NCBI GenBank assembly: GCA_030612025.1
Contig: JAUWOR010000006.1
Span: 26,043-90,042 of the forward strand
DNA: 64,000 nt
Source: Dehalococcoidia bacterium
GTDB taxonomy: Bacteria > Chloroflexota > Dehalococcoidia > GIF9 > AB-539-J10
Direction: 5' to 3'
Shown piece after piece: positions 40,588 through 55,907 of this stretch. The notes below the pieces were generated by a model. That model was given only the letters and a program-made list of their open reading frames with translations. It was not told the origin of the DNA and did no database searches. Within the stretch, counting starts at the first letter, position 1; each line of letters starts with the position of its first letter. A program made the position numbers and the translations under genes.

Positions 40588-40842
40588 GAGTGGTCGAAAT
40601 GCTTCAAGTGTCTCCTTACTACCATATCCGAGGGAGAAACTACCATCCTCAAACCACGGGATGGTAGAAAGGCTTATTCGGACAATTAAAGAAGAAGAGA
40701 GCTATGTTAATGACTATCCTGCCCCTTTAGATGCTCAAAGGAAGCTTGATGTGTGATGATACACTGTAACCATGAACGCCCACACCAGACCCTGGGATAT
40801 AAAACGCCTTCAAAATTGATGATGAAAGTGGCCTACAAATAA
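40588..40842 (+). pseudogene. transposase (rve/DDE integrase core) C-terminal remnant, multiply frameshifted
   Basis: Manual translation gives ...SPYYHIRGRNYHPQTTGW / ERLIRTIKEEESYVNDYPAPLDAQRKL / NHERPHQTLGYKTPSKLMMKVAYK* across three frames. Confidence 0.55.
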
Positions 40843-41126
40843 TAAATATACTATTGGATAAGGCAGGCGGATTAGAGCCTGAACTGCAAGACTATTGCTC
40901 AAGTTTGCTGAGTATCTGAAAGGTCTTTCTACAAATGAAGAAACATAGTCTGTTTTTGCTGACTGAGCTTTATCTGCCTGCTTCATTCATACCTATTTAC
41001 ATACAATGTTAAATTTTTGTTGATATTATGTCAAAATCGTAGAACATTAACACCCATTGAATTCCATGTCTTGACAAAGGCTCAGTGTTAATAATATGCT
41101 TCACTAACTACTTTGATGTTGATTAA

Positions 41127-41603
41127 GTGTCTGATATGGTAGAAGACAAGAACGAAGAATTATATGACCTATGGACATTGTTGCTTCGTGCTACCCGCTT
41201 GGCTGCAAAAGCGAGAGAGAAAGAACTTAGACCATACGGTATCTCACGTGCAGAGGCAGGAGTGCTACGCGTTATATTTCAAAAACAAGGCCGGTTAACG
41301 CCGTCGGATATTGCAAGACAAACGAGAAGAGAGATCCACACTGTTAATGCGCTACTGCATAGGATGCAAGGAAGGGAAATGCTGCAAATCGTAAGGGGTG
41401 AGAACAGAAAGGATATTGTCGAAATGCATTTAACGGATAAGGGGTATCAAGCCTATGAAAACAGCCTTAGACTAGACTCCGTTTCCGAAATACTGTCTAT
41501 CCTATCAAAGGATGAACGTACATCTCTTGCATCAATTATGCGTAAGGTTGGAAATTCTGCTCTAGAGGTTATCAAGGAATGCGATCATCCGCGCTTTTCA
41601 TAG
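41127..41603 (+). CDS. MarR-family transcriptional regulator
   Basis: 158 aa. The winged helix-turn-helix region is ISRAEAGVLRVIFQKQGRLTPSDIARQT...VNALLHRMQ. Confidence 0.75.
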   Translation: MSDMVEDKNEELYDLWTLLLRATRLAAKAREKELRPYGISRAEAGVLRVIFQKQGRLTPSDIARQTRREIHTVNALLHRMQGREMLQIVRGENRKDIVEMHLTDKGYQAYENSLRLDSVSEILSILSKDERTSLASIMRKVGNSALEVIKECDHPRFS

Positions 41604-41770
41604 TTTTCCCCTGGAAAACAAACTAGGCACGCACGTTGAAGGCAGACAATGGCGCCCACAATTGGGGGGTGGATTGCTCTGTTAATTTATCAAAGAAACT
41701 TTCAATATATCCATTCTCCTGGGGACTGTCAGGATTAATAAGCGGAGTCTGGCTGCCTAGAGCTTCCTAG

Positions 41771-42049
41771 TCACTGGCAGACCGCCCTAGCAACAAACTC
41801 AGAGCCGTTGCCACTGTGAATAAACTTCGGCACCCCACGGGTCAGCAGCAAACACTCCGGCCTCCTCACTACCGCCGAAGCTGGTATTGCGGGTGCAATC
41901 CTGGTGGCCAGGCACTGCCGGGCGGACGCATCAATTACAGCCAGAGTCCCGAGCTTATGACCTCGCTCGGTCCTGTCCTCCATGAAGTCGTAGCTCCAGA
42001 CATGATGGGATGTATTCTGTTTTTTTTCAAATTTCTGCCAGTGTTGCAT
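41771..42049 (-). pseudogene. transposase (rve integrase core) internal fragment
   Basis: The 92-aa ORF contains HVWSYDFMEDRTERGHKLGTLAVIDASARQ...FIHSGNGSEFVA. This fits the D..D / HSDNGSEF core of IS3/IS481-like integrases. Confidence 0.55.
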
Positions 42050-42225
42050 AAATCATATGTATAGTTTAATATATAGGTGTACTTAGCAGTAGATATATAT
42101 GTGTAATTATAAGTTGACGCATTTGACTTTTATGATTAGAGTTGTTAGAATGCAGCAAAATCGATGACAAGAAGGGGTATTGTACATTGTCGCCGCCTGT
42201 TCACCTACCGGGAGGCTACTCATAA

Positions 42226-53403: not shown

Positions 53404-53420
53404 TTTAGGAAGGTGAGTAA

Positions 53421-54305
53421 GTGATTAAGGTGCAAGTAAGCGTAACCCCAAATGAAGCTAAACGCCTTATTGCCAAAGCGGTTTCCCAAATGTCAGTAGT
53501 TTGTAACGCTTTAAAGAACGGTAAAATATTACTCAAGGGAGGCACCACGGTTTCTGCTTTAGCTGAGGAGTTAACCGCTACAAAACTGAAAATTTCGGGG
53601 CGTATTACCAAACAAGGGACAAAAACAGCAAACAAAATACCCGGTTTTCATAGAGTGCTTCTTGAAGGTGGGCAGTTGAAAGGGCTCGACTCGGACTCAG
53701 CTCTTAATGAGGTTGCTGTCCAGATGGGGAAAAACGATGTACTTATAACGGGAGCCAATGCCCTTGATGTGAACCGTAGAGCTGCAATTATGGTTGGGGC
53801 TCCTTTGGGGGGTATAGCAGGGAGATTCTTACCTGGTCTCATTGCCAGGGGCGTCATTACTATTATAGTAGTGGGATGGGAAAAACTTATCCCTTATCCC
53901 TTGGAAGAAGCATTGGCTGCAGCAGGAAGAGAAACTGTAGATCTAGCAATGGGCTTGGCTGTTGGTCTTATTCCCTTACGAGGAATTGTTGTCACCGAAA
54001 CTGATGCTGTTAGTATGCTGACAGGAGTGAAGGCTACGGTCATAGGGGCTGGAGGTATTATGGGTGCTGAGGGCTCAACTACTTTTGTTATAGAAGGAGA
54101 GCCATCTCAAGTAAAGAAGGCATGGGAAATTGTCTATAGCGTAAAAGGAGCTGAAGTAAGTGGACTACCGGAGTCCCTTATCGAATGTAATCCAAAGAGT
54201 CCAATGTGCGCCAAGTACCTAAGTGTCGGTAATATGCGTATACCTTATCATCGTGCCTGCGTATATCGACAGCCGGAGTTAGTAACAAAAGTCTTTTCCA
54301 CGTAG
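53421..54305 (+). CDS. hypothetical Gly-rich protein
   Basis: 294 aa with repeated G-x-G-rich segments (GANALDVNRRAAIMVGAPLGG, IGAGGIMGAEGST). No confident family assignment. Confidence 0.45.
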   Translation: MIKVQVSVTPNEAKRLIAKAVSQMSVVCNALKNGKILLKGGTTVSALAEELTATKLKISGRITKQGTKTANKIPGFHRVLLEGGQLKGLDSDSALNEVAVQMGKNDVLITGANALDVNRRAAIMVGAPLGGIAGRFLPGLIARGVITIIVVGWEKLIPYPLEEALAAAGRETVDLAMGLAVGLIPLRGIVVTETDAVSMLTGVKATVIGAGGIMGAEGSTTFVIEGEPSQVKKAWEIVYSVKGAEVSGLPESLIECNPKSPMCAKYLSVGNMRIPYHRACVYRQPELVTKVFST

Positions 54306-54419
54306 CTTTGATTTATAACATCTATGCTAGCATGAATTGTGGGCAATCAGCGGGAAACGGCACATGGCCTTACTTTTTGAAGATATATAAGTTCACTCCT
54401 AAGTTATTTAAAACTAGGT

Positions 54420-55637
54420 ATGAGAAAGGTTTTTTATGGTTGGTGGATAGTATTTGCTTGCTTCCTCATTGCCTTCTATGTCGGTGGTACAGTAATCTAT
54501 GGCTTTACGGCTTTCTTTGAGCCGATAGCACAGGAGACTGGCTGGAGCTATACTCAGATCTCAATCGCTGCCTCCCTCCGTGGTTTGGAGATGGGAATAC
54601 TTGCTCCCATTATGGGTTTCCTTGTTGACCGCTTTGGTCCGAGAAGGTTAATATTCTGCGGAACGCTTACGCTAGGCTTCGGGTTTATCTTTCTTAGCCA
54701 AGCCAACTCACTTACTATGTTCTATGGTGCCTTTGTTCTTCTCGCTCTGGGAGTGAGTGCTTGCACTAGCACGGTGCTGATGACGGCGGTAGCCAACTGG
54801 TTCAGGAGGAATGTGGGAAAGGCACTCGGTATCATGGCTTGTGGATTCGGTGCCGGCGGAATACTTATCCCACTTATAGTTCAATTCATTGACCTTTATC
54901 AATGGAGAACCACTTTTATTATCCTAGGATTAGGAATGTGGCTACTTGGAATCCCTTTATCATTTATCATCCGTCATAAGCCAGAGCAATATGGCTATCT
55001 TCCTGACGGGGAGACATCAGCTGAGCAAGTCTTAACCTCTAAAAATCAAGAGCAGGAAGTTAATTTTAAGGAAGCACTTAAGAACAGAGACTTCTGGCAT
55101 TTAAGTATTGCAGAGGCAATACGGATGATGGTTTGCACGGCAGTTATTACTCATGTCATGCCTTATCTTAGTAGCCTGAATATATCCAGGTCGAGGGCCG
55201 CTCTTGTGGCAACCTCTATTCCACTGCTCAGCATTATCGGGAGGCTTGGTTTTGGCTGGCTTGGTGATATTTTTGATAAAAGGTATGTCATGGCTGGAGC
55301 ATATTCCCTTGCTGGAGTAGGGATTTTAGCTTTCTCCTATGTTCAGGCGACATGGCTTATTTTTCCTTTCCTTATCCTTTTTCCTTTGTCATTGGGAGCC
55401 GTGGTTTTGAGAGGAGCCATAGTAAGAGAGTATTTTGGGATAGCTTCTTTCGGCAAGATATTTGGGATAATGGCGGGGATAGCAACGATTGGTGGAGTCC
55501 TGGGTCCTTCCCTTGCTGGATGGACATATGACACTTTTGGAAGTTATCGTCCAATATGGCTTGCCTTTGCTGGTATTAGTATTGTTCCCGTAATGTTGAT
55601 GTTAACGATAAAACCATACAATTGGATAGTTGAGTGA
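54420..55637 (+). CDS. MFS transporter (oxalate/formate antiporter-like)
   Basis: 405 aa with 12 predicted transmembrane segments and a central cytoplasmic loop. Confidence 0.8.
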   Translation: MRKVFYGWWIVFACFLIAFYVGGTVIYGFTAFFEPIAQETGWSYTQISIAASLRGLEMGILAPIMGFLVDRFGPRRLIFCGTLTLGFGFIFLSQANSLTMFYGAFVLLALGVSACTSTVLMTAVANWFRRNVGKALGIMACGFGAGGILIPLIVQFIDLYQWRTTFIILGLGMWLLGIPLSFIIRHKPEQYGYLPDGETSAEQVLTSKNQEQEVNFKEALKNRDFWHLSIAEAIRMMVCTAVITHVMPYLSSLNISRSRAALVATSIPLLSIIGRLGFGWLGDIFDKRYVMAGAYSLAGVGILAFSYVQATWLIFPFLILFPLSLGAVVLRGAIVREYFGIASFGKIFGIMAGIATIGGVLGPSLAGWTYDTFGSYRPIWLAFAGISIVPVMLMLTIKPYNWIVE

Positions 55638-55907
55638 GTTTAAAAATGTGTAACAAGCAACCAGCGGGGAACGGCACCTGGCCCTGCTTTTTTCAGCCAG
55701 ACGCTTCCTCGTCCCGTGTGGTGCGCCGCTGTAATCGGGGGTCGCCTGCAAATGTTGGTTTTGCTATTTGTTTTTGAGTCTGACGATATTTCCCTTTGAT
55801 ATGCCAGCTATTGTGGATAAGCAAACATGGCAGTTAGCACAAAGACGAATGGAGAGTCAAAAAGCTAGGGCAGAAGAAAGAAGGATGTGAGAAATGTGTG
55901 GCAAAAA

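Follow-up and report, generated by a model that had tools for sequence, protein, structure and literature searches.

Only two activities are known for the AcnX enzymes, one in types I and IIa and the other in type IIb, and several subclasses of the family are uncharacterized. Among these, types IIc to IIf lack the landmark residues (Watanabe et al. 2021). In the archaeal type IIb enzyme TkAcnX, the ligands of the iron-sulfur cluster are the large-subunit residues Cys110, Cys283 and Cys342 (PDB 7CNR/7CNS). In ApPMDh, of the same type, replacing any one of the Cys by Ala abolishes the cluster absorbance and lowers the activity to less than 4%, and the E145A mutant keeps 76% activity (PMC10040528). 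For the type IIa enzymes, activity has been noted with two Cys, and possibly a Glu, as ligands (Watanabe et al. 2021). No AcnX member without the cluster cysteines is described in this literature. Here, we analyze two AcnX gene pairs in a 64,000-nucleotide (nt) stretch of DNA from a Dehalococcoidia bacterium (assembly GCA_030612025.1, contig JAUWOR010000006.1, positions 26,043-90,042 of the forward strand), hereafter the window, in which all coordinates are counted from its first nucleotide. Both pairs, denoted L1/S1 and L2/S2 for their large and small subunits, belong to a block of about 15 kb (positions 40588-55900) that an original prediction, made from the same sequence, took for a horizontally acquired metabolic island with two paralogous AcnX dehydratases. 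In the interpretation that we consider reasonably probable, this is instead a mosaic locus that combines a catabolic pathway encoded by cassette A (42.66-47.33 kb: amidase, DUF2848, cupin, L1, S1 and a TIM barrel protein of 306 amino acids (aa)) with an AcnX-like pair, L2/S2, that lacks the cluster.

The gene families in the block were assigned by Pfam and NCBIfam profile searches, which bear out the predicted gene list at its coordinates. L1 (44618-45904, + strand; an open reading frame (ORF) of 431 aa) matches PF04412 over the complete profile (E 3.8e-121, profile positions 1-400 of 400), and S1 (45904-46320, + strand), the start of which overlaps the L1 stop codon, matches PF01989, the small, swivel subunit (E 5e-20). 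Cys139, Cys318 and Cys377 of L1 align with the three ligands of the TkAcnX cluster, and L1 also keeps the carboxylate- and 3-OH-binding residues Glu-Ser-Ser and Lys. With this set of residues, L1/S1 fits the structural definition of AcnX type II and is predicted to bind a cluster and to function as a dehydratase.

L2 (50436-51695, + strand) and S2 (51688-52107, + strand) are equally complete by the measure of the profiles (PF04412, E 2.5e-100, positions 1-400 of 400; PF01989, E 1e-19), and each is tightly joined to the preceding gene, the L2 start lying inside the stop codon of the upstream permease gene and the S2 start inside that of L2. At the three ligand positions, L2 has Ile129, Cys308 and Thr365; the CPHA motif is shortened to CP, and WSESSA is changed to WAESGT, with Glu148, Ser149 and the Lys retained. 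All three Cys are kept in 118 of the 124 homologs aligned with L1 and L2. The exceptions include P0006 and P0030, with Val at the first position, P0051, which ends before the third position, and P0014, which has Asn, Cys and Ser at the ligand positions and has lost the active-site Glu as well. P0014, encoded on the metagenome contig L004, is the top match of L2 among 5.8 billion proteins, and the small subunit paired with it shares 80% identity with S2. L2 and P0014 jointly deviate at columns that are at least 90% conserved in the clade (C139, S160, A161, V314, G317, the PHA motif and C377). The replacement residues in L2 and P0014 differ at both Cys positions, suggesting that the constraint was released in their common ancestor. 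We considered the possibility that the loss of the Cys in L2 is a sequencing artefact and rejected it: the identical protein is found on three independent assemblies, and P0014 is altered at the corresponding residues.

In the neighbor-joining tree, L2 and P0014 are sisters nested among Cys-bearing sequences of a Dehalococcoidia-type subclade that includes L1. The two pairs of the window are 62% (L1 and L2) and 67% (S1 and S2) identical, and L2 is 65-68% identical to several foreign sequences; because each pair is closer to genes of other organisms than to the other pair, the two are not recent in-genome duplicates. Nor can L2/S2 be taken for an equivalent second dehydratase, given the absence of two ligands and the loss of activity in the single Cys mutants of ApPMDh (PMC10040528). 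Thus, of the two paralogous dehydratases in the original prediction, L1/S1 stands as a type II enzyme, and L2/S2 does not stand as its duplicate.

The loss of the ligands has not been followed by the loss of the genes. Between L2 and P0014, the nonsynonymous divergence (dN) is 0.19 and the synonymous divergence (dS) 2.9, and for S2 and its counterpart, the respective values are 0.12 and 1.2, yielding dN/dS of about 0.07, an approximate figure at this saturated dS, and 0.10. Compared with seven outgroups, L2 and P0014 have mean identities of 0.558 and 0.585, and 13 sister sequences have 0.605-0.629, that is, the acceleration is moderate. The L2/S2 ORFs are intact in two lineages, and L004, which has lost cassette A and the transporter gene of the major facilitator superfamily (MFS), has kept this pair. 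By these sequence comparisons, L2/S2 is not a dead gene pair but is maintained by purifying selection, and it is very probably a conserved derivative without the canonical cluster site rather than an aconitase-type dehydratase.

The history of the locus can be read from metagenome contigs (L004, L005, L086, L087, L088, L090, L091 and L094-L098 were used for comparison). On the left, the block is flanked by the genes for MutS (37182-39728, - strand) and YbeY (39807-40280, + strand), and on the right, by those for UPF0102/YraN, RNase HII and MnmA (55908-58133, - strand), all housekeeping genes by their Pfam matches; they converge from either side on a region, 42.6-55.7 kb, in which every gene is on the + strand and the intergenic gaps are small or negative. 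A scan for promoters and terminators found no more sites than in shuffled sequence, and operons were not defined from it. The right flank is shared with L004/L005 and L086 (92-94% aa identity for the three proteins; RNase HII dS 0.19). The left flank is shared with L094 (MutS and YbeY, 92.8% nt identity), a contig that ends at 40776, inside the first remnant of an insertion sequence (IS), and so informs on the left flank only. The window belongs to a contig of 100.8 kb from a metagenome-assembled genome (MAG). Its MutS falls in a 90%-identity cluster with a protein from a Dehalococcoidia MAG, the nearest match of L1 in the genome collection is in a Dehalococcoidales MAG, and a scan of that collection with AcnX retrieved, for the most part, type IIb enzymes of archaea, along with only two close relatives from bacteria.

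Next to the same right flank, L004 carries, in this order, an XRE regulator, an intact ribbon-helix-helix (RHH) gene, a TAXI-TRAP transporter, an S15 peptidase, a second TAXI-TRAP, an SDR, a pair resembling L2/S2 and then UPF0102. At the site of cassette A, L004 reads ...GAGAAGAGGAGACGATG|TGTATGAGTAAACATAAATAA, where the sequence upstream of the amidase start in the window is fused to the final eight codons of the 306-aa gene. The junction (about 755-775 in L004) lies within an 11-nt sequence, AGGAGGTGATG, that comprises a ribosome-binding site and a start codon and that, in the window, is present at either end of cassette A (42646-42656 and 47299-47309); it appears that microhomology between ribosome-binding sites acts as a deletion hotspot. 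Similarly, all that is left of the MFS gene in L004 is its initial ~45 nt, followed by the conserved downstream intergenic sequence. These deletion scars imply that the common ancestor already had both cassette A and the MFS gene and that the difference stems from losses in L004 rather than from gains in the window. L086 starts with the 3' end of an S2-like gene and the downstream spacer (92% nt identity), lacks the PrpD stub and the gene for a 226-aa protein, has a frameshifted version of the gene for a 294-aa protein, and carries, before UPF0102, a different, Cys-complete AcnX pair together with TAXI, AFOR and a 2-hydroxyacid dehydrogenase. Between the relatives, the TAXI-TRAP-L2 module has an nt identity of ~70% in its interior compared with ~92-93% in the flanks; for L2 and its L004 counterpart, the nt identity is 73% and the dS ~2.9. 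Interiors so much more diverged than the flanks indicate that alleles were exchanged with divergent donors.

Thus, the interval from ybeY to yraN/rnhB is a variable locus that collects modules for the uptake and breakdown of organic acids, an old mosaic plasticity region shaped by short-homology deletions and allele replacement, not by one recent acquisition. A recent gain should leave close relatives without the island at the same site; L004 and L086 carry variant islands there. The context of the homologous clusters accordingly argues against the recent acquisition put forward in the original prediction, as relatives with ~92-93% identical flanks have the same locus filled with other modules. 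What holds of the predicted island is that it is accessory, compositionally distinct and bordered by decayed mobile debris.

The mean GC content at third codon positions (GC3) is 0.359 in the 12 island genes and 0.438 in the other 36 ORFs of the window (Mann-Whitney p=9e-5), with the lowest value, 0.30, in the TAXI-TRAP-L2-S2 block; the respective overall GC contents are 0.425 and 0.454 (p=0.014). The block is therefore richer in AT than its flanks, as predicted. The proposed check of GC content and codon usage gave a split outcome, because, by a synonymous-codon log-likelihood measure, the island does not differ from the other parts of the window (p=0.9).

The debris at the left edge likewise conforms to the prediction of two transposase remnants and a frameshifted RHH gene. 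IS remnant 1 (40588-40842, + strand), found by six-frame translation, is a C-terminal piece of an integrase-core transposase split between two frames (rve_3, E 2.4e-8); given that L094 aligns at 92.8% up to position 40776, inside this remnant, the insertion predates the strain split. IS remnant 2 (41640-42049, - strand) is the N-terminal and central part of a frameshifted rve transposase (rve, E 7e-8; rve_3, E 4e-4 on the shifted continuation). Between the two remnants lies a gene for a MarR/TrmB-like winged-helix regulator (41127-41603, + strand; weak MarR_2, TrmB and HTH_24 matches), which is missing from L004; a 39%-identical MarR gene adjoins the homologous cassette in L087. The small RHH-like gene (42226-42442, + strand) has a +1 frameshift, with one extra base after the ATG. 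The stitched translation has no match in Pfam, and the frameshift was confirmed instead against the intact 54-aa orthologs in L004 and L005 (MLKGKTIRLNEEEWVEVEEEATRLGISV...). Apart from these two decayed rve fragments and the broken RHH gene, the island has no mobile-element hallmarks among those searched for: no integrase was found in it, the tRNA and Rfam scans of the entire window returned no match, and a repeat search across the island picked up the paralogous AcnX stretches and the 11-mer resembling a ribosome-binding site but neither direct nor inverted repeats flanking the island. Between YbeY and IS remnant 1, there is also a 61-aa ORF (40319-40504, - strand) without a family match, in a stretch that is ~93% conserved in L094.

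These observations bear on several alternative explanations. Low GC3, the debris at the left edge, the presence of cassette A in a different genomic context in L087, and module interiors of the kind expected after exchange with divergent donors would all be compatible with a recently acquired island in which two functional paralogous AcnX dehydratases serve one new pathway. We consider this scenario unlikely. The L004 scars place cassette A and the MFS gene in the common ancestor, IS remnant 1 is common to L094, the scans of the window and the island found no tRNA, integrase or flanking repeat, and, with regard to the enzymes, L2 lacks two of the cluster ligands and neither large subunit is the closest relative of the other. 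Another option is that L2/S2 is a decaying pseudo-operon en route to loss, like the neighboring PrpD fragment. The surroundings certainly decay, as attested by the PrpD stub, the IS fragments, the frameshifted RHH gene and the deletions in the relatives, and both L2 and P0014 evolve faster than their sisters, with P0014 additionally deprived of the active-site Glu. Nevertheless, this fate seems distinctly doubtful for genes that are full-length and free of stops and frameshifts in two lineages at saturated dS, with dN/dS of 0.07-0.10, that begin with start codons overlapping the upstream genes, suggestive of translational coupling, and that were retained when L004 lost its neighbors. The missing Glu of P0014 is not decisive on its own, considering the activity of the ApPMDh E145A mutant (PMC10040528).

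Alternatively, L2/S2 might bind an iron-sulfur cluster via non-canonical ligands, for example, Cys308, Cys144 and Glu148, and still be a dehydratase. Type IIa, with its activity at only two of the usual Cys, provides a precedent (Watanabe et al. 2021), Cys144 and Cys308 are present in both L2 and P0014, and L2 keeps Glu148, Ser149 and the Lys. However, the two Cys kept by type IIa are exactly the two that are lost in L2, Cys144 is a general feature of the clade rather than a compensatory gain, L2 and P0014 have different replacement residues (Ile/Asn and Thr/Ser), which fits a released constraint, and P0014 lacks the Glu; on balance, such ligation is rather improbable. As for L1/S1, it is hardly to be expected that this pair has one of the known AcnX activities, even if its best NCBIfam match is the LhpI model for cis-3-hydroxy-L-proline (C3LHyp) dehydratase and its best PDB match is TkAcnX. 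The LhpI equivalog model (NF051439) gives 231 bits against a 700-bit cut-off. The landmarks of AtAcnX (Asp203, Trp35, Thr72 and Ile206) are not conserved, Asp203 being replaced by Leu and Trp35 by Gln in S1 or Leu in S2, and the phosphate loop of TkAcnX (Gly48-Val49-Ser50, Asn53) is not kept in L1 (SAHTLFTLRSK as opposed to SAQVAGVSYKN in TkAcnX). L1 is 32-38% identical to the archaeal type IIb enzymes, which form a separate clade, and there are no hydroxyproline or mevalonate genes nearby. By sequence, then, L1/S1 belongs to an uncharacterized bacterial AcnX-II clade outside both known activities.

Several observations weigh against the interpretation that we favor. The residue of S1 that aligns with the catalytic Ser of the small subunit is Pro. 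The same position is occupied by Ser in S2, and the small subunits paired with three other Cys-complete large subunits have Ala there; the next residue is always Ser or Thr, so that the catalytic base in this subclade may be shifted by one residue; more generally, Pro or Ala at this position may mean that the mechanism in the subclade differs from that of textbook AcnX. The case for selection on L2/S2 involves a saturated dS, at which omega is approximate, and a Cys-less clade of two members. L2 and P0014 keep both Cys308 and the clade-typical Cys144, located four residues before the active-site Glu, and may thereby ligate a cluster in an unusual mode. The enzymes of the block match only at the family level, far under the equivalog cut-offs. 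Finally, allelic replacement by recombination has occurred in this locus and is itself a form of horizontal transfer. The Pro in S1 had raised the possibility of cross-pairing between L1 and S2; it was set aside, as the partners of other Cys-complete large subunits have Ala at this position and L004 keeps L2/S2 without cassette A.

Returning to the mosaic locus with a cassette A pathway and a cluster-less L2/S2, the other genes of cassette A are compatible with catabolism of a carboxylate. The first is a C-N hydrolase, an amidase of the Nit/omega-amidase type (42656-43480, + strand; Pfam E 2.8e-51), the best NCBIfam matches of which are deaminated-glutathione amidase and nitrilase, all far under the equivalog cut-offs. 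The second is a DUF2848 protein (43477-44196, + strand; E 3e-54) with a weak similarity to the C-terminal domain of fumarylacetoacetate hydrolase (FAA_hydrolase, E 6e-5); a literature search found no papers on DUF2848 and nothing relevant for DUF521/DUF126. The third is a 121-aa ChrR-type cupin (Cupin_7 in Pfam; 44198-44563, + strand; the gene call is as in contig L001). Downstream of the AcnX pair, the 306-aa protein (46408-47328, + strand) is one of more than 3,200 proteins in a family without a Pfam model; many of them are more than 70% identical across Chloroflexota and Firmicutes, and some are labeled 'peptidase'. The AlphaFold model (pLDDT 80, pTM 0.82) is a TIM barrel for which the closest fold is class-II-aldolase-like; the protein has numerous invariant His, Asp and Glu and a very low dN/dS, and a PDB sequence search with it returned nothing meaningful. 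Hence, among the proteins that the original prediction listed as unknown, the first is DUF2848 and this one is an aldolase-like TIM barrel, and two others, of 226 and 294 aa, are indeed without a family.

Cassette A is a transferable block. L087 has the same order of genes, CN_hydrolase, DUF2848, Cupin_7, AcnX large subunit, AcnX small subunit and a 303-aa protein, at 60-88% aa identity (65% for the C-N hydrolase and 60% for DUF2848), between the divergent MarR gene upstream and hydantoinase A/B, NicX/M29 and TAXI-TRAP downstream. L090 carries DUF2848 (82% identical), the cupin, the 21-codon tail of a small-subunit gene (positions 718-780 of that contig) and a 306-aa homolog (92%); by its sequence, this is cassette A with the AcnX pair deleted from between the cupin and the 306-aa gene. 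Downstream in L090, there is also a TAXI-TRAP and, at a distance of 7 kb, a distantly related (34%) Cys-complete AcnX pair along with three D-glutamate cyclase genes. The 121-aa cupin sits directly upstream of a 306-aa homolog even in unrelated contexts (L095-L098), which indicates that the conserved unit is the cupin-barrel pair; in the window and in L087, the AcnX pair lies between the two.

Between the two AcnX pairs lies a TAXI-TRAP transporter in the strict sense, with an adjacent binding protein and fused permease that each score above the curated cut-off. The TAXI-family solute-binding protein (47372-48454, + strand; TIGR02122, 105.5 bits against a cut-off of 84.35) is a lipoprotein, with a lipobox-like LIGC motif in its sequence, and the permease (48499-50439, + strand; TIGR02123, 516.5 bits against 320.65) is of the fused DctQM type. 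Behind S2 lies a remnant of an MmgE/PrpD gene (52330-52710, + strand; E 7e-7, 29.6 bits compared with the Pfam cut-off of 32.1) that encodes the C-terminal ~126 aa and covers profile positions 82-171 of 173. The full two-domain protein of ~450 aa is not encoded here, there being no N-terminal domain and no coding sequence upstream of the stub; full-length PrpD genes adjoin related AcnX pairs in L088 and L091.

The next gene (52723-53403, + strand) encodes the 226-aa conserved hypothetical protein with a Cys-rich C-terminal half (CGSGG...YYCCHCC...DPC) and no family match; its 90%-identity cluster has 23 members, and a 91% identical copy adjoins another AcnX cluster in L090. A PDB match of this protein to designed PPR repeats, limited to residues 5-47, is spurious. 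The 294-aa conserved hypothetical protein (53421-54305, + strand) belongs to no Pfam or NCBIfam family and has 672 relatives, counted as 50%-level clusters at E<=1e-3, two of which are fused to AroM; a 72% identical copy lies upstream of the AcnX pair in L086. A PDB sequence search with this protein returned nothing meaningful, and its model (pLDDT 94.8) has an alpha/beta fold with a best PDB TM-score of ~0.35 (eIF2B/ribose-1,5-bisphosphate isomerase), that is, a confidently modeled fold without a close solved structure. The last gene of the block (54420-55637, + strand) encodes an MFS carboxylate transporter of the oxalate/formate-lactate (OFA) type, as assigned by Pfam and NCBIfam. An intergenic element of ~87 nt 3' of this gene (55657-55743) is 92% conserved in L004 and occurs twice in L086 (7526-7611 and 8769-8855), behind different genes; possible roles are those of a shared terminator and of a joint at which modules recombine.

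The neighborhoods of related AcnX pairs elsewhere offer clues to the function. These pairs adjoin TAXI-TRAP, TctABC or MFS transporters, and also PrpD/MmgE, aconitase, RraA-like, HpcH/HpaI aldolase, Amidohydro_2, ILVD/EDD and Ldh_2 genes. In addition, enzymes that act on amides or lactams recur near cassette A and its relatives: the C-N hydrolase, hydantoinase/oxoprolinase A and B (L087), D-glutamate cyclases (L090) and creatininase (L095). Because carboxylate transporters and amide/lactam enzymes make up these neighborhoods, the substrate probably belongs to the class of carboxylates that bear an amide or a lactam. In the resulting scheme, such a carboxylate would be imported by the TAXI-TRAP and/or the MFS transporter; the C-N hydrolase would strip the amide nitrogen; L1/S1 would dehydrate a 3-hydroxy-acid intermediate by the aconitase mechanism; and the FAH-like, cupin and TIM barrel proteins would isomerize the product or cleave a C-C bond. 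L2/S2, apparently translationally coupled to the TRAP permease, would originate from the same AcnX subclade and would have lost the cluster-binding site. The pair most likely binds no [4Fe-4S] cluster and, kept as it is by purifying selection, would have a cluster-independent role, which may be ligand binding, scaffolding or different chemistry. The uncharacterized pathway for carboxylate or amide catabolism in the original prediction is thus a fair reading, with an AcnX that lies outside both characterized functions and, in the phylogeny, does not cluster with a clade of known function, the archaeal type IIb enzymes being on a separate branch.

A more far-reaching version, which we put forward tentatively, is that the cluster-free L2/S2 and P0014 represent a natural branch of AcnX with a job other than dehydration, next to a previously undescribed pathway for amide or lactam hydroxy-acids in cassette A. 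Under this version, L2/S2 could be a cytoplasmic ligand-binding or regulatory partner of the TAXI-TRAP transporter or an isomerase without a metal cluster, and the pathway would consist of an uncharacterized AcnX-II subclass together with two unassigned families, the 306-aa TIM barrel and DUF2848. In L091 (ENA ERZ25039503 contig_15919), positions 2253-9693 contain two AcnX pairs, two PrpD/MmgE genes, an ILVD/EDD dehydratase and a TAXI-TRAP, so a duplicated AcnX beside PrpD is a recurring arrangement.

Elsewhere in the window, a hairpin-forming repeat of ~47 nt, TCACCCTCACCTTAATCCTCTCCC[A/G]TCAAGGGAGAGGAAAT, occurs at 22529-22575, 56272-56313 and 58297-58343, with a partial copy at 24465-24489. 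With at least three copies at gene ends, and found in L004 too, it resembles a terminator or an element of the REP type. The listed UPF0102 ORF has one of the copies within its 5' extension, and the start of UPF0102 is therefore probably an internal Met (MNRQETG...). A second patch of low GC content (~0.41; 14973-18936) is probably a small defense and toxin-antitoxin islet; its products are a HepT-like RNase toxin and a protein of 1071 aa that has an N6-methylase domain and a Type ISP C-terminal specificity domain. A DUF763 protein (19426-20514; E 2e-136) and a PAC2-family protein (11640-12554) are encoded in the left half of the window and are unrelated to the AcnX locus.

The bacterial AcnX subclass described here, always located beside carboxylate transporters and accompanied by a conserved five-enzyme cassette, offers a concrete set of proteins for substrate discovery, and the 306-aa TIM barrel and 294-aa families are worthwhile targets on their own. 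An AcnX-like pair conserved without the cluster ligands would be a natural experiment on an aconitase fold without iron-sulfur chemistry. At base-pair resolution, the locus displays the reshuffling of catabolic modules in uncultured subsurface Dehalococcoidia, by short-homology deletion and allele replacement, which bears on the adaptation of these small genomes to the available organic matter.

Among the described systems, the archaeal type IIb enzymes, TkAcnX and ApPMDh, which are mevalonate-5-phosphate dehydratases, resemble the pairs of the window most closely in architecture, with two subunits, a large one of ~420 aa and a swivel one of ~135 aa. L1 shares with them the three [4Fe-4S] Cys positions, Glu-Ser-Ser and Lys, and TkAcnX is its best PDB match (E 3e-65). 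The differences are the identity of only 32-38%, the unconserved phosphate loop, the bacterial host without mevalonate genes nearby, the Pro of S1 that aligns with Ser62 of TkAcnX, and, in L2, the lack of two of the three Cys. AtAcnX is bacterial, like L1/S1, and shares with it PF04412 and PF01989 and a design that combines a general acid-base with a Lewis acid. In contrast, AtAcnX is a fused protein with a [2Fe-2S] cluster on Cys273, Cys508 and Cys510, whereas L1 has the type II pattern; the residues of AtAcnX that contact the pyrrolidine nitrogen or ring (Asp203, Trp35, Thr72 and Ile206) are not kept, the equivalog score is a third of the cut-off, and Ser70, at the position of the catalytic small-subunit Ser, again corresponds to Pro in S1. 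By description, that is, two subunits, bacterial or archaeal, without the landmark residues, L1/S1 is likened to types IIc to IIf, with no lettered subclass assigned.

Aconitase-fold proteins that persist without an iron-sulfur cluster, with a binding role instead of catalysis, are known in the form of IRP2 and apo-IRP1. Unlike L2/S2, these are eukaryotic, monomeric and RNA-binding, and nothing points to RNA binding by L2/S2. For the locus as a whole, the counterpart is the high-plasticity regions of Dehalococcoides, strain-variable zones with core-gene flanks, IS fragments and reductive dehalogenase genes; the locus of the window, in an uncultured lineage, differs in that it carries transporters and genes for carboxylate and amide catabolism.

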